Positions 18,123 to 22,879 of a stretch of 64,000 nucleotides of DNA are shown here, piece after piece; the first letter of the stretch is position 1, and each line of letters opens with the position of its first letter. Origin of the DNA: an uncultured delta proteobacterium (GTDB lineage: Bacteria; Desulfobacterota; Binatia; UBA9968); contig CAVYTU010000014.1 of assembly GCA_963771465.1 (NCBI GenBank), positions 384,001 through 448,000 of the forward strand. Reading direction: 5' to 3'. The translations under genes and the position numbers were made by a program. The notes under the pieces are model-generated. The model ran no database searches. It was not told the origin of the DNA and worked only from the letters and a program-made list of their open reading frames with translations.

Positions 18123-20786
18123 ATGGAACCCCAAGCCGACCTCATCCGCAGCATTCCGATCTTCTCCGCACTGTCGCGCGAGGATGTCGCCAAGGTGCTG
18201 GGTAAGATGGAAGAGATTACTTTTAGCACCGGCGCGACGATTTTTAGTCAGGGCGATCACGGCGACGCCTTTTACTTGATTCAATCCGGCGCGGTGCAAG
18301 TGGTCGTCGAAAGCGGCGCGGGCAACGCCGAGGTCGTCGCCATTCTCGGCGCCAAGGATTGGTTTGGCGAGATGGCACTGCTTTCCGGCGAGCCCCGTTC
18401 GGCGACCATTAACACGGTGAAAGAAACCACACTGTGGCGGCTCAGCCGCGAAGCTTGGGATGAACTGATCGATAAACATCCCACTTGGCTGCTCCAGTTC
18501 TGCGCGACCCTTAGCAAACGGCTCTCCTACGTCGACCGGCAATATTCAACCGGACGGGAAGCTTTTAATTCTCTCGCCGAGGAGTTTTACGGCTCGCGCA
18601 CGCCCGGCGAACGGCAATTTTTCCGCCACGCCTCACTGCTCGGCGCCATCGATGCGCAGAATTTCGATCGACTCTTTCGCACCGACGGGCTGACTCAATT
18701 GATTACCGATCTTGGCAATAGTCAGTTTCCGCTGATTCGCCATCTCGGTGACGGCAAGTACGAGCTGCATAGCTTCTTTAAGGATTTCTTGCGCGAAAAA
18801 CTAAATTCCATCGACGGCGCCGAAGCGATGCAGCGGCTCCATGCCGATTTTGCCGAGCGCTACGAAGCTCTCGGCGATTGGCCGCAAGCGTTGCATCACG
18901 CCGTGCACGGCCAAGATTGGTCGACCGTGACCCGTCAATTGACCGCGCAAGGTGAGCACCTGCTTGCCGACGCGCCGCTGTTGGTAAAGAACACGCTGGA
19001 GAGCGTTCCCCAAGAGCAACTCTTGAGCAGCCCCCGCTTGGTCAACTTGAAAAGCAACGTCTTGATCCAGCTCGGCGATATCGCCGGCGCCTATCGAACC
19101 TATCATCAGTTGTTGACGCAAAAGACCGCGGGAGCAATGGGCATGGATACCATTGTCGGCTATCGGCGCATGGCGGAAACTTTGGCGCAGCGAAAAGAAT
19201 ACGCCCAAGCCATCCATCAATTACGCGCCGCACTCAACGTGTTGGACCAAGATAACGCCATGACAGGAGATTTCTCTGAAGTTCCAACGGATATACCGCG
19301 GCTGCAGCCGACGGATGCGACGGCGCATGAGCAGCAGCGCGCCGACCGATCGGCCAACCGTTTGCGAACAACCATCGCTGCGCTGCGCTCGTCGGCGCTG
19401 TCAAAATGGTTCGGCGCGCTGGCCGGACTCGCGGCAGGCAGTTATCTCTGGTTCGGACAGCCCGACATCGGCCTCGATACGGCGGCGACGAAATTGCTCG
19501 GATTGATTACGGCAACCTTAACTTTTTGGGTCTTTCGTTCGCTGCCGGATTACGGCGTCGCGTTGATGTTCGCGATGATCATTGTCCTTACCAATTTGGA
19601 ATCGGCGCAAACGGTCATGGGCGGGTTCGCCAGCACGACATGGTTTATGACGCTTGGTGTCTTGGGCCTCGGTGCGGCAATCACCGGCTCGGGTTTATTT
19701 TACCGGTTGTCACTCCACTTGGTGCGCCTGTTTCCGCTGAGCTTTTACTGGCAGATCATCGCCACGGGTATCATGGGTGTCGTCGTCATGGCACTGATTC
19801 CGCAGCAGACCGCCCGCACGGTCATCACCAGCCAGATGCTGATTAATCTTTCCGAGAGCTTGGGTTACAAGACGCCGTCAAAGGCGTCCACCGGGCTATT
19901 CACGGCGAGTTTTCTCGGCTTGGGGCAGCTCGGTTTTTTGTTTCTGACCGGCTCGACGACGAGCTTGATCGCTTGGGGTCTGCTGCCGACAGATGTGCGG
20001 GAGCAGTTTACCTGGGGCTATTGGTTTCTCGCCGCGCTGCCGCCGACGCTGGTGGTCATCGTTATCATCCTAGGGAGCTCGATCATTCTCTTTCGGCCCG
20101 AATCGCAACCGAAGATTTCCTACACCATGGTGCAGACGCAATTAGAAATTTTGGGGCCGCTCTCGTCTAAAGAATGGATTAGCCTCGCGGTCCTTTGTTT
20201 CACGGTGGGTGGCTGGCTCACGACAGCGCATCACGGCATCGACAGCGCCTGGATCGCCATCATCGCGTTTTCGGTTTTGGTCAACACCGGCATTCTTGAC
20301 TGGAGTATGATGCGCAAGGGCATCGACTGGGAATTACTAATTCACATGGGCGTGACTCTAAGCATCCCGACGCTGTTGAAAGCGGCAAAGATCGATCAGT
20401 GGCTGGTCGACGTGATTTCACCGTTGATTCTGCCGTTCATGGACACCCCGGCATGGTTTTTCATCATCATCGCGCTGTTGACCTATGCGCTGAAATTAGT
20501 TTTCACCAGCTTCCTGGCCGTGGTCACGCTCTGCGTCGCGTTGCTGCCGTTGTCGATCGACGTTGGTATGAATCCATGGATTATCGCCATGATCATTCTC
20601 ATCGCCTCGGAAGTTTGGTTTTTTCCCTACCAGGTCGACTGGCACATGCTCGCCTACTCCACCACCGACGGCAAAGGATTTTTTTACCCGCTCATGTGCC
20701 GGGTAAATCCCATTTATGCCGTAGCCTACATCGCCGCGCTCGTTGCCGCGATTCCATACTGGCGTTATCTCGGTTTGATGAATTGA
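18123..20786 (+). CDS. cNMP-binding domain + MalT-like winged-helix/arm/TPR region + SLC13/DASS anion permease
   Basis: FGEMALLSGEPRSAT phosphate-binding cassette; KYELHSFFKDFLREKL...LHADFAERYEALGDWPQALHHA; C-terminal multi-TM region with GSGLFYRLSL, LIPQQTART, FLTGS, TWGYWFLAALPP, LGPLSSKEW. Confidence 0.85.
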   Translation: MEPQADLIRSIPIFSALSREDVAKVLGKMEEITFSTGATIFSQGDHGDAFYLIQSGAVQVVVESGAGNAEVVAILGAKDWFGEMALLSGEPRSATINTVKETTLWRLSREAWDELIDKHPTWLLQFCATLSKRLSYVDRQYSTGREAFNSLAEEFYGSRTPGERQFFRHASLLGAIDAQNFDRLFRTDGLTQLITDLGNSQFPLIRHLGDGKYELHSFFKDFLREKLNSIDGAEAMQRLHADFAERYEALGDWPQALHHAVHGQDWSTVTRQLTAQGEHLLADAPLLVKNTLESVPQEQLLSSPRLVNLKSNVLIQLGDIAGAYRTYHQLLTQKTAGAMGMDTIVGYRRMAETLAQRKEYAQAIHQLRAALNVLDQDNAMTGDFSEVPTDIPRLQPTDATAHEQQRADRSANRLRTTIAALRSSALSKWFGALAGLAAGSYLWFGQPDIGLDTAATKLLGLITATLTFWVFRSLPDYGVALMFAMIIVLTNLESAQTVMGGFASTTWFMTLGVLGLGAAITGSGLFYRLSLHLVRLFPLSFYWQIIATGIMGVVVMALIPQQTARTVITSQMLINLSESLGYKTPSKASTGLFTASFLGLGQLGFLFLTGSTTSLIAWGLLPTDVREQFTWGYWFLAALPPTLVVIVIILGSSIILFRPESQPKISYTMVQTQLEILGPLSSKEWISLAVLCFTVGGWLTTAHHGIDSAWIAIIAFSVLVNTGILDWSMMRKGIDWELLIHMGVTLSIPTLLKAAKIDQWLVDVISPLILPFMDTPAWFFIIIALLTYALKLVFTSFLAVVTLCVALLPLSIDVGMNPWIIAMIILIASEVWFFPYQVDWHMLAYSTTDGKGFFYPLMCRVNPIYAVAYIAALVAAIPYWRYLGLMN

Positions 20787-21109
20787 CAACCGTTCGCTGC
20801 GTTCTCGGCGATCTCGTCCGAATCTCGTTATCAACCCTTGTCATAATCGTGACGACAGTTGCAGACCGCAGCAATCCCGTCGTCCGTGCGATTTTCAGTG
20901 GGAAAATTCACTGGGCACGGAGAAATTCAAGCGCATCCAGATCATCAACACCACCTCGTCGTCAATTTTAGAGAACTGAGCAGTAATAAAACGTCCTGAT
21001 AAATGGTCTTTGCGTTTGTTATCCCTACAACTCTTTGCTTGAGCTTCGATTCAACCTATTGAGTTTTACTTAGCGTGAGTAAAATAATTTCTAAAATGAT
21101 ATTTTTTTC

Positions 21110-21139
21110 TTGACATACCATTTGTTGTGCCTTAATAAT
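21110..21139 (+). promoter_or_regulatory. sigma70-type promoter with AT-rich UP region
   Basis: TTGACA at 21110-15, TAATAAT at 21133-39, A/T tracts at 21081-21109. Confidence 0.65.
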
Positions 21140-21254
21140 CGATCCAGCTACAAAATATGGGAGGGTTCCAGAAGTAAATCGTCTCCGCCTGAGTCATACT
21201 TTACTGCCTGTCAAGTAAAAGCCCGCCCGTGGAATTTTAAAAGGAGGTGCTCTT

Positions 21255-21302
21255 ATGGCTGCTAAGAAAAAAGCCAAGAAGAAAGCCAAAAAGAAAAAGT
21301 AA
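21255..21302 (+). CDS. 15-aa lysine-rich peptide MAAKKKAKKKAKKKK
   Basis: AAGGAGGT at 21241-48, ATG at 21255, TAA at 21300-02; has its own promoter and terminator. Confidence 0.75.
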   Translation: MAAKKKAKKKAKKKK

Positions 21303-21385
21303 CTATCTACTAGATGTGGGGTTGTGGTGGTGTTTTAAACCCTCCTTACTCTCAGGCGACAAGGTAACTGTTCTGGTTGCCTAAT

Positions 21386-21429
21386 ACACAGAGCCCTTCA
21401 AGCGTCAGCTTGAAGGGCTCTGTGTTTCT
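21386..21429 (+). terminator. Intrinsic terminator, perfect 18-bp stem
   Basis: ACACAGAGCCCTTCAAGC-GTCA-GCTTGAAGGGCTCTGTGT followed by TTCT. Confidence 0.85.
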
Positions 21430-21581
21430 GCCGCGTCCGCTTCACTTTTGAGTCATTGACTTCGCTGCACTTTCGCTCCTGACGCAACATCCGTTCAGTG
21501 TCCAGCTGTGGGTGAGCGCTCGGGTCGGCTCGGGAAGACTTAGTATTGCGTCGCTCCAATCAAATGGTTAGAGTTATTGCC

Positions 21582-22145
21582 GTGAATGTATTGTTTCACC
21601 GTCACTCGCTGGCGTTGATTCTGGTGACCTTGAGCGTGGTATCGCTGAAGCCGGCGCCGGCGTTGACGCAGTCGAAGGTTGATTACAAAGCCGTACCGAT
21701 TCTTCAGGCGATGAAAGAAGTCGCTCCGACACCGGAGATCAATCTCGCCACGCCGGACGGTAAAAAACTTTCGCTCAAGGATTTCCGCGGTAAGATCGTC
21801 CTGCTCAACTTCTGGGCGAGCTGGTGCGTGCCCTGTCGCGAAGAAATGCCGGCGATGGAAAAACTCTATCAGGAATTTAAAGACAAAAACTTCGTTATCC
21901 TCGCGGTGGCCGTCAAAGACCGCAAACAAGATGCCGTCGACTTCGCTAAAGAGCTCAAGATCACCTACCCGATCGCTCTCGATCCTGACGCAAAAGTCGG
22001 TCAGGAGTACGGTGCCTGGGGACTGCCCGCTACCTACATCATCGGTCCCAAGGGCGAAGGCCTTGCTCGCGGTTGGGGGCCGGCCGAATGGTACGGCAAC
22101 GGTGCGAGAAAATTGATCAGAGATCTGGTCGACGGTAAACGATGA
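21582..22145 (+). CDS. TlpA/ResA-like thiol-disulfide oxidoreductase
   Basis: LNFWASWCVPCREEMP, WGLPATY. The GTG start lies 7 nt after a TTGCGT-17-TAGAGT promoter. Confidence 0.9.
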   Translation: MNVLFHRHSLALILVTLSVVSLKPAPALTQSKVDYKAVPILQAMKEVAPTPEINLATPDGKKLSLKDFRGKIVLLNFWASWCVPCREEMPAMEKLYQEFKDKNFVILAVAVKDRKQDAVDFAKELKITYPIALDPDAKVGQEYGAWGLPATYIIGPKGEGLARGWGPAEWYGNGARKLIRDLVDGKR

Positions 22146-22879
22146 CCGATGTAAACGTATTCGTTGCCTTTGCCGCCGGTATTTTTTCCTTTCTTTCTCC
22201 CTGCGTCTTGCCGCTGATTCCCTCCTATCTATCATTCGTTTCGGGGGTTTCCCTCGAAGAGATGCGTAGCGATCAGGCGCGAACGCAAGTGCGTGGCCGC
22301 GTCGTGCTAAATTCGCTGGCATTTATCTTGGGATTTTCCCTTGTCTTCGTTTCCCTCGGTGCCTCGGCGAGCTTTCTCGGCAGCCTCTTTTTAAGTTATC
22401 GAAATATCATTCGCATCGGCGGCGGCATTTTCATACTCCTTGTCGGCCTTTACCTCGTGGGCGCCTTTAAGATCGCCGCGCTCGATCAGTATCTCCAGTT
22501 CAATCTCAAGGATAAGCCCGCCGGCTATCTCGGCTCCGTCTTAGTCGGCATCACGTTCGCTGTCGCGTGGACTCCCTGCGTTGGACCGATCCTCGGCGCG
22601 ACTTTAGCGCTGGCCAGCACCGCTGGCGAAGTCGGCCGCGGCACGTTTTTGCTCATGAGCTATGCCGCGGGCCTCGCTCTGCCGTTTTTCTTGAGCGCGC
22701 TGGCGATTAATTCGTTTGTGCAATTCTCGCAAAGCCTACGCGGTTATATTCAAGCCATTCACGTCATCGGCGGTGCGCTCCTGATCATCGTCGGCGTCTT
22801 ACTGATTACCGACTACATGACCTTCCTGAATATCTACGTGCTGCGCTTCACGCCCAATTGGTTGCTGCAGAAGCTTTAA
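22142..22879 (+). CDS. ccdA: Cytochrome c biogenesis protein CcdA
   Basis: SFLSPCVLPLIP and WTPCVGPILG motifs. Confidence 0.93.
   Translation: MTDVNVFVAFAAGIFSFLSPCVLPLIPSYLSFVSGVSLEEMRSDQARTQVRGRVVLNSLAFILGFSLVFVSLGASASFLGSLFLSYRNIIRIGGGIFILLVGLYLVGAFKIAALDQYLQFNLKDKPAGYLGSVLVGITFAVAWTPCVGPILGATLALASTAGEVGRGTFLLMSYAAGLALPFFLSALAINSFVQFSQSLRGYIQAIHVIGGALLIIVGVLLITDYMTFLNIYVLRFTPNWLLQKL

Follow-up and report, generated by a model that had tools for sequence, protein, structure and literature searches.

A conserved lysine-rich micro-gene of Binatia with a long-range structured mRNA, and similar micro-ORFs in other lineages

Introduction

Lysine- and alanine-rich, histone-H1-like proteins of the bacterial nucleoid are known from chlamydial Hc1 and Hc2, from AlgP-type proteins and from the lysine-rich tails of HU, while amino-acid-run leader peptides are familiar from attenuators such as those of his, trp, thr and leu. 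Long-distance pairing between the 5′ and 3′ ends masks the Shine-Dalgarno sequence (SD) in type I toxin mRNAs such as hok and aapA1, as well as in dual-function small RNAs (sRNAs), and known riboregulators with anti-SD motifs act in trans on the SD regions of other mRNAs. Among very short coding sequences, bL37 of Mycobacterium smegmatis is reported as a 24-residue micro ribosomal protein encoded by a small open reading frame (ORF) (PMC5876184), and the polycysteine small ORFs (sORFs) of mycobacteria are reported to be Cys-responsive attenuators (10.1101/834739). Here we analyze a lysine-rich sORF of 15 residues, together with its promoter-to-terminator unit, in DNA of an uncultured delta proteobacterium (Desulfobacterota; Binatia; UBA9968; assembly GCA_963771465.1, contig CAVYTU010000014.1, forward-strand positions 384,001 to 448,000). 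Throughout, "the window" means this whole stretch of 64,000 nt, and all coordinates below refer to it.

None of the known systems that we compared fits the locus as a family. Micro ribosomal proteins of the bL37/bS22 type resemble it in their tiny size, in a small ORF missed by annotation, in restriction to one lineage and in a plausible folded-rRNA partner; compared by description only, however, the Binatia peptide is shorter than bL37 and almost pure Lys/Ala, with no folded helix expected. The sORF is found in two families of its order and not in the third, bS21 is present irrespective of it, and four natural variants of 21–29 amino acids (aa) returned no family from NCBIfam or Pfam at E ≤ 10. 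H1-like nucleoid proteins share with the peptide and its 13–30-aa relatives the character of a Lys/Ala low-complexity polycation, and the start MAAKKKAK is also that of long K/A-rich proteins and of HU, SWIB and SmpB proteins from other lineages, but the Binatia peptide is 5–10 times shorter and has no globular domain. Leader-peptide attenuators are alike in having a very short ORF dominated by one amino acid, a terminator after it and a same-strand gene cluster downstream, and unlike in that no alternative to the terminator was seen here (by inspection only), the downstream genes are unrelated to lysine and the unit stands alone elsewhere.

Two further comparisons concern the RNA. Type I toxin mRNAs likewise have a long-range 5′–3′ helix around the SD and a tiny ORF, an SD-sequestering element and a stable 3′ end, yet the Binatia peptide is polycationic and lacks any hydrophobic stretch, unlike a hydrophobic membrane toxin; a consensus scan of the element's minus strand returned no promoter-like site, and no antisense partner was identified. 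The anti-SD sRNAs suhB/mmgR (RF00519) and the Betaproteobacteria toxic sRNA (RF02278) also place a single-stranded, C/U-rich CCUCC just before a terminator hairpin, but these families are ORF-less, the window element matches neither at E ≤ 10, and the resemblance is limited to two sub-threshold units labelled Terriglobia. A literature search, whose coverage leaves out most subscription journals, returned nothing describing such peptides and nothing for the peptide strings themselves.

If the peptide is made, it would be among the shortest conserved bacterial gene products and an extreme, nearly pure ribosome-made polycation, encoded by a micro-gene that gene callers and family libraries miss and that tryptic proteomics would probably miss too. 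The original prediction had described a stand-alone, strongly expressed micro-protein gene below gene-caller size limits; to this our analysis adds a long-range 5′–3′ RNA architecture, an anti-SD-like element and similar micro-ORFs in many lineages.

Results

Conservation of the unit within the order

The sORF MAAKKKAKKKAKKKK extends from an ATG at 21255 to a TAA at 21300–21302 on the + strand (21255–21302), and its 15 residues include 10 Lys and 4 Ala, with AAA and AAG codons intermixed. Around it, all the elements of a micro-gene that had been proposed—promoter, leader of about 110 nt, SD, Lys-rich ORF, structured 3′ untranslated region (UTR) and 18-bp terminator stem—can be located in the sequence, at coordinates that we have corrected.

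Using the 331 nt from promoter to terminator as a query, we obtained one strong match per genome in 21 of the 24 genomes of the genus (20 of the 23 published ones) at 79–92% identity, the three genomes without a match being 60, 88 and 91% complete. The same query matched all 5 genomes of a second family (68–72% identity) and 0 of 11 genomes of a third. A pattern combining the SD with the start of the ORF (AAGGAGGT-N4-6-ATGGCNGCNAARAARAARGC) was found in 50 of the 123 genomes of the order, or 47 of the 120 published, and in 19 of its 27 genera and two of its three families; it is present as a single copy in 49 of these genomes and as two copies in one, and the reversed pattern, used as a control, gave 0 matches. 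(Published counts leave out the unpublished genomes G005, G079 and G093, of which G005 enters the genus count.) In a draw of 401 genomes from the phylum there were 3 matches, including the window's own genome and one of its own family. The whole unit of about 290 nt is thus conserved, and not by chance.

Public contigs that carry a Binatia element are titled as metagenome-assembled genomes (MAGs) of "Candidatus Binatia bacterium" or "delta proteobacterium". A Binatia-type element is also found on two public contigs labelled by their depositors Chloroflexota and Syntrophobacter sp. (L028 and L046), labels that may reflect binning or naming and not the real distribution. G003 alone has the element twice, on two contigs (G003:C25:188520-188551 and G003:C26:28028-28059) and in one case near a contig end, which could reflect either a real duplication or an artefact of assembly.

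Coding signature of the sORF

We collected 43 elements, none of them from unpublished genomes, of which 23 were found by whole-element BLAST and 20 by the SD-plus-start pattern. In the pattern-found elements only the first seven codons were fixed by the search, and the 23 BLAST-found elements were not selected for ORF features. In all 43 sequences the SD is perfect and optimally spaced from an AUG, and the tract runs straight into an in-frame stop; the length variants (13–19 aa) are invariably in frame. The SD itself, AAGGAGGT/AAGGAGGU (21241–21248, +), is followed by a 6-nt spacer and is a perfect 8-nt complement of the 3′ end of 16S rRNA, which in the host genome's own copy reads ...GGAUCACCUCCUUUCU; it is unchanged across the 23 BLAST-found elements, while the search pattern demanded it in the remaining 20.

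The relatives' peptides are built from K and A, with T, P and V as rare additions and R solely as the last residue. In the 15/16-aa class (27 sequences), codons 8–15, which lie outside the pattern, vary at 6 of 8 third positions and at none of the 16 first and second positions. In the full set of 43, the codons beyond the pattern number 374 and comprise AAG (171), AAA (147), GCN (44), AGR (6), ACN (4), CCT (1) and GTA (1); they include neither AAY nor GAR nor any in-frame stop. All four third bases are used in the Ala codons, with GCC favoured and GCG avoided, and Lys codon use is near that of the genome (AAA 46% vs. 54%). Judging from these patterns, the ORF appears to be under selection as a coding sequence, with selection predicted to act on the peptide itself. 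The expectation that relatives would carry a conserved SD and a Lys-rich sORF with synonymous changes upstream of tlpA-ccdA was therefore borne out.

Peptides of this composition are rare in the genome, in whose 6.9 Mb only 7 ORFs of 8–60 aa reach at least 45% Lys; the window sORF is the richest of the seven (67% Lys) and one of two with an SD-like site. Four relatives of 21–29 aa were looked up in a collection of 15 billion proteins, and none was present.

Long-range architecture of the mRNA

The RNA from 21140 to 21430 has a folding energy of −100 kcal/mol (z = −5.07), which none of 200 shuffles equalled. RNAalifold and the analysis of pairing in the 43 sequences identify a long-range helix between a 5′ strand, CGCCUGAG (21186–21193, +), and a 3′ strand, CUCAGGCG/CTCAGGCG (21351–21358, +), which encloses the SD and the ORF and is 100% paired in 43/43 sequences. 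Its outermost pair is C-G in 38 sequences, U-A in 3 (a compensatory change) and U-G in 2, and the helix is kept in the deeper 29–30-aa variants L075 and L107. A second contact probably joins a C-rich leader segment, GCCCGCCCG (21221–21229, +), to the G/U-rich tract GUGGGGUUGUGGUGGUGUUUU after the stop codon (21316–21336, +), of which the composition but not the sequence is kept in alignments; the predicted duplex is available in 43/43 sequences at −10.2 to −20.3 kcal/mol (mean −14.3), in a varying register and without a shuffle control. Leader and 3′ UTR being paired, the SD, the AUG and the A-rich ORF would therefore sit in one large loop.

Further downstream, a 3′ UTR hairpin (AGGUAACU/GGUUGCCU, loop GUUCU; 21362–21382, +) is 96.2% paired, and 5 of its 8 pairs have changed on both sides, in up to 20 of 43 sequences at a single pair. 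It is followed by an intrinsic terminator (21386–21430, +), whose stem pairs 21386–21403 with 21408–21425 in a perfect 18 bp, with the loop GUCA and a U-rich tail, and whose two helices across the alignment show both-side changes at 9 of 13 pairs. Covariation over the whole structure exceeded that of 500/500 shuffles and of all slid controls, figures that are inflated by the relatedness of the sequences. The terminator escaped a consensus scan on account of the weak T-run that follows its stem in the window; this run is better in relatives.

Between the G/U-rich tract and the 3′ strand of the helix is an anti-SD-like segment, AACCCUCCUUA/AACCCTCCTTA (21338–21348, +), that resembles the 16S 3′ end. 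In the 43 sequences its invariant CCCUCCUU can be paired either with the SD (96.0% of cells pairable, −11.5 kcal/mol) or with an invariant 5′ segment, GGGAGGGUU (95.9% of cells, −15.7 kcal/mol). The latter (21159–21167) closes a 5′ tail that begins with CUACAAAAUAU (the tail as a whole spanning 21148–21167, +) and is complementary to AACCCUCCU on the 3′ side. Forcing the SD to be masked costs only 3.5 kcal/mol over the minimum-energy fold. From these models an anti-SD/anti-anti-SD switch in the Binatia mRNA is plausible, and it would make this mRNA a compact example of translation gating, with a mimic of the 16S 3′ end between two competing SD-like partners. A CCTCC motif 3′ of the sORF is present in 19 of 23 Binatia-type loci among the public matches listed.

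The invariant CUACAAAAUAU (21148–21158) has no evident pairing partner. Two other features of the leader were considered and rejected: a 5′ mini-ORF from the conserved AUG in AUAUGGG, of which neither length nor stop codon is kept, and a local hairpin of GGGAGGG with the pyrimidine run before CGCCUGAG, for which pairing is weak and inconsistent among sequences by inspection.

Promoter and expression

The unit lies in an AT-rich island, as had been predicted: GC content is 0.36–0.44 over 20900–21400, compared with 0.49–0.59 alongside and 0.557 genome-wide. Its sigma-70-type promoter (21110–21139, +) matches the consensus at 11 of 12 positions, with TTGACA at 21110–21115, an 18-nt spacer and AATAAT at 21134–21139, and is preceded by an A/T-rich tract (TCTAAAATGATATTTTTTTC; 21080–21109, +) that may act as an UP element. 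The stretch ATTTTTTTCTTGACATAC, which comprises the −35-proximal part of the tract, the −35 and the next three bases, shows no variation in the 23 BLAST-found elements. In the alignment of all 43 elements the shorter CTTGACATAC is invariant or nearly so (43/43), with a −10-like TAnAAT or TAnACT at a constant distance from it. By a consensus scan the region has 2 promoter-like sites against a mean of 1.3 in shuffles, so that the count as such is not above shuffles. Transcription is predicted to start at about 21146, which would give a leader of about 110 nt.

All or part of the stretch is present in 20 public sequencing runs from 16 studies, of which 6 are metatranscriptomes, and we compared four of the RNA runs as assembled contigs. 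X17 contributes a 209-nt contig of depth 94.9 that spans 21175–21363 with 0 differences, X18 a 233-nt contig spanning 21161–21393 with 2 differences, and X13 a contig spanning 21217–21397. The contigs from these soil RNA libraries are all contained in the predicted transcript, and none extends across the terminator. Part of the stretch is not covered by RNA contigs, and the flanks are of low depth in X13 and X16; these gaps were not used as evidence for transcript ends. We infer that the sORF is translated in vivo. Conservation and the RNA-library contigs over the unit thus speak for the predicted gene being real and expressed, whereas the claim that it is strongly expressed stands on weaker ground, namely the quality of the promoter and a single RNA contig with a depth of 95.

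Similar micro-ORFs beyond the order

A looser pattern (GGAGG-N4-9-ATGGCNGCNAARAARAARGCNAAR) was found at no fewer than 119 public loci, where by our estimate chance would yield well below 1. Among the matches listed there are 120 ORFs, of which 92 are complete and no longer than 40 aa, 27 of them Binatia-type and 65 from other lineages, and 91 of these 92 keep at least 50% K+R past the 8 residues fixed by the pattern. The depositors' labels of the 65 listed include Terriglobia/Acidobacteriota, Verrucomicrobiota, Planctomycetota, Patescibacteria, Omnitrophota, Gamma- and Alphaproteobacteria, Polyangiaceae, Brevinema and DPANN-type archaea. The 29–30-aa variants L075 and L107, one of which is titled Candidatus Binatus sp., also belong to this wider set of relatives.

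A second conserved family is formed by 14 MAG loci labelled Terriglobia/Acidobacteriota, again among the matches listed, which encode an 11-aa peptide, MAAKKKAKKK followed by R or K. Synonymous changes are seen in this family, AGG/CGG at the last codon among them, and it has its own near-invariant promoter (CACTTTCCTCTTGACAAGATAAT), leader hairpin, SD (GGAGGAG) and terminator. Its loci are L037, L038, L039, L062, L068, L072, L079-L081, L092, L112, L113, L125 and L135, with the sORF near position 401-446 of each locus, and an RmuC-family gene adjoins the micro-gene in 5 of them. Two Terriglobia 3′ UTRs, L060:464-537 (+) and L103:318-383 (−), resemble suhB/mmgR (RF00519) at 30.2 and 23.2 bits where the gathering score is 41, the resemblance consisting of the UUUCCUCC motif followed by a terminator.

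Outside Binatia the downstream CCTCC motif is not general: among the matches listed it is found at 9 of 67 loci, compared with 6 of 67 for an opposite-strand control motif. When the energy of the 5′–3′ duplex was compared with 20 mononucleotide shuffles, an insensitive test, loci from other phyla had a median z of 0.2 with 2 of 68 below −2, and the Binatia-type units were also weak in it (z −0.85 to −3.19). Among 150 of 152 flanking ORF fragments scanned, neighbours in the other phyla are diverse and include PlsY, OsmC, MerR, FolD, PurA, LemA, MutS and RmuC, among others. With sequence this simple, the units may share ancestry or may have arisen repeatedly.

Four longer ORFs of 68–81 aa (L034, L036, L055 and L078) also begin with MAAKKKAK and combine a Lys-rich head with a shared core, …LVVGSKVK…GDL.EA…; these proteins have no Pfam match. 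They come from MAGs labelled Planctomycetota, Phycisphaerae, Myxococcota or just "bacterium", and may represent an undescribed small nucleic-acid-binding domain.

A candidate polycationic micro-protein and its putative self-gating mRNA

Our preferred reading, held with moderate confidence, is that the locus encodes a translated and regulated polycationic micro-protein that binds cellular polyanions and whose mRNA gates its own translation. The micro-gene would be monocistronic and transcribed independently from a strong sigma-70-type promoter into an RNA of about 285 nt that ends at the intrinsic terminator. Its leader would pair with the 3′ UTR, through CGCCUGAG with CUCAGGCG and probably also through the C-rich leader segment with the G/U-rich 3′ segment, thereby displaying the perfect SD, the AUG and the unstructured A-rich ORF as one large loop, to be translated into a Lys/Ala peptide of 13–19 residues. 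In the window peptide removal of the Met is probable, which would leave 14 residues of an intrinsically disordered polycation. Most likely the peptide would bind polyanions, either rRNA and the ribosome or nucleoid DNA, and act like a free tail of the histone-H1/protamine type or like a micro ribosomal protein. With CCCUCCUU either masking the SD or captured by GGGAGGGUU, translation would probably be gated by an RNA conformational switch, which may respond to the peptide product itself or to cation status.

Several observations are compatible with such a function. Among 25 longer proteins scanned from other lineages, the MAAKKKAK start also heads 2 SWIB, 2 HU and 1 SmpB proteins, which fits a nucleic-acid-binding tail; this is the sole, indirect backing for the H1-tail- or protamine-like binding of nucleoid, ribosome or polyphosphate suggested in the original prediction. 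Across the 13–30-aa relatives the peptide is variable in length and tolerant of S, P, G and T insertions while remaining polycationic throughout. The strength of the promoter, the depth of conservation and the elaborate folding of the mRNA all suggest a component of the cell that is abundant and regulated in a poorly known soil lineage.

Other observations weigh against this reading, in whole or in part. The sORF is lacking from the sister family, the third of the order, where even a looser pattern found it in 0 of 28 genomes and where it was seen at 0 of 5 syntenic sites upstream of ccdA; the product can thus be dispensed with, which speaks against its having a core role in the ribosome. Among the 150 of 152 flanking ORF fragments in other phyla there is likewise no link to a ribosomal operon, and domains of bS21 and spermidine synthase do not distinguish genomes that carry the sORF from those that lack it. 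A purely RNA-level A-R-N repeat would also account for third-position A/G variation taken by itself; the missing AAY codons and the synonymous GCN codons argue for coding, though they are no proof. The RNA support consists of assembled contigs without strand, mapped ends or a DNA control, so that DNA carry-over is possible. As for the switch, its two pairings are without covariation support because all three G- or C-rich segments involved are invariant or nearly so, and they are indistinguishable from each other on this ground; the GGGAGGGUU pairing, moreover, would form a pseudoknot with the long-range helix, with a connecting loop of about 4–5 nt that may be sterically strained.

Two more specific functions were rejected. 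Replacement of a lost small ribosomal protein was set aside after finding bS21, the only such protein checked, in 5/5 genomes (3 with the sORF and 2 without), and replacement of polyamines after finding genes with spermidine-synthase domains in the same proportions, with no differential.

On a wider and more tentative view, which we regard as possible but rather doubtful, oligolysine peptides of 11–40 residues would be a widespread, unannotated class of bacterial and possibly DPANN-archaeal polycations, protamine- or polyamine-like and acting on ribosomes, the nucleoid or other polyanions; they would be made from their own strong promoters and lineage-specific structured mRNAs, and the Binatia switch could feed back on polycation or ribosome status. 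Look-alikes under so many phylum labels, including those of the reduced-genome Patescibacteria, would then amount to a general blind spot.

Alternative readings and genomic context

An RNA that is dual-function or mainly regulatory would account for part of the same evidence, though we consider it unlikely. The locus would then produce an sRNA whose exposed CCCUCCUUA acts in trans on the SD regions of other mRNAs, with the micro-ORF as a second product or as a device for folding or stability. Consistent with this, the UTRs are conserved as much as the ORF, with GGGAGGGUU, CGCCUGAG, CCCUCCUU, CUCAGGCG and the loop GUUCU invariant or nearly so, and the stable 3′ hairpin followed by a terminator is a typical sRNA feature; the weak similarity of the L060 and L103 3′ UTRs to suhB/mmgR points the same way. 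As a precedent, a preprint reports an attenuator RNA and a 14-aa leader peptide that are both functional (10.1101/606483). Against it, the coding signature points to selection on the peptide itself, and the downstream anti-SD-like motif is, as given above, hardly more frequent than its control outside Binatia. Furthermore, no Rfam family reaches E = 0.1 on the window element: a search of window positions 20000–22500 with Rfam release 15 at E ≤ 10 returned only three chance-level eukaryotic matches, none relevant to the element, and no relative reaches a gathering score, the best being the suhB/mmgR match at 30.2 bits against 41. Finally, no Hfq (PF17209) was found in the genome, which is 99.4% complete, while it was detected in control genomes.

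The genes around the sORF bear on another reading. Downstream of it in the window, on the same strand, are genes for a TlpA-like thioredoxin and for CcdA. Across the 27 loci with flanks, which come from two families, the sORF has ccdA downstream on its own strand in 26, the remaining locus having too short a downstream sequence, and tlpA likewise in 22. In 15 of the 18 loci listed, an ORF of 269–294 aa is placed between the sORF and tlpA/ccdA; it is lacking in the window's genus, where tlpA comes next, and all 3 that were scanned are alpha/beta hydrolases (Abhydrolase_6) with secondary matches to S33 aminopeptidase-type models. The upstream neighbour is not conserved, being a symporter, a regulator or an ExbB-like gene.

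This arrangement would suit a cis-acting leader or attenuator of the hydrolase-tlpA-ccdA cluster, in which the Lys codons sense the supply of lysyl-tRNA or translation capacity and so set read-through of the terminator. The shared gene order and the varying upstream neighbour favour it, the ten Lys codons recall amino-acid-run leader peptides, and the polycysteine sORFs, reported to be Cys-responsive attenuators, provide a precedent (10.1101/834739). Nevertheless, we hold this reading to be highly improbable. No antiterminator alternative to the terminator stem was seen in the sequence or folds by inspection, no dedicated search having been run, and the stem covaries as a fixed hairpin, bridged by no RNA contig. 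The gene immediately downstream varies among loci between the hydrolase-sized ORF and tlpA, and none of the products—hydrolase, TlpA-like thioredoxin or CcdA—is connected to lysine. In addition, 29–30-aa relatives and units from other phyla lie away from ccdA, a gene for which 4 of 5 genomes queried gave no match and which is elsewhere in the fifth, and the sequence downstream of the Terriglobia units is not conserved.

The least probable reading of all, a non-coding structured RNA whose A-rich tract is a binding platform for a protein such as ribosomal protein S1 or another RNA chaperone, and whose ORF look is a by-product of an (A-A-R)n repeat beside an SD-like purine run, would agree with the strongly conserved fold and with the A-R-N repeat that the distal face of Hfq binds, a repeat that (AAR)n fits and that would likewise vary at third positions only, but it is at odds with the 0 AAY in 374 codons where A-R-N would permit them, with GCN codons that interrupt the repeat yet stay Ala with all four third bases, and with the optimally spaced SD, AUG and in-frame stop kept in 43/43 sequences, 23 of them unselected for these features, while a platform for Hfq in particular is rejected, no Hfq gene having been found in the genome.

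Minor observations at the locus

The hydrolase ORF begins …PPEKPKFKSP.ILVHGLW… and was seen at loci L164, L166-L170, L173, L174, L176-L178, L020 and L022-L024. In the window, the gene upstream of the micro-gene (18123–20786, +) encodes an 887-aa protein in which a cyclic-nucleotide-binding domain is fused to a transporter of the Na/sulfate-symporter type. Just 5′ of the UP-like tract, the window also has a 7-bp inverted repeat (TTTTACT…AGTAAAA; 21065–21085), common only to the closest relative, L003; this repeat may serve as an operator or terminate transcription of the upstream gene.

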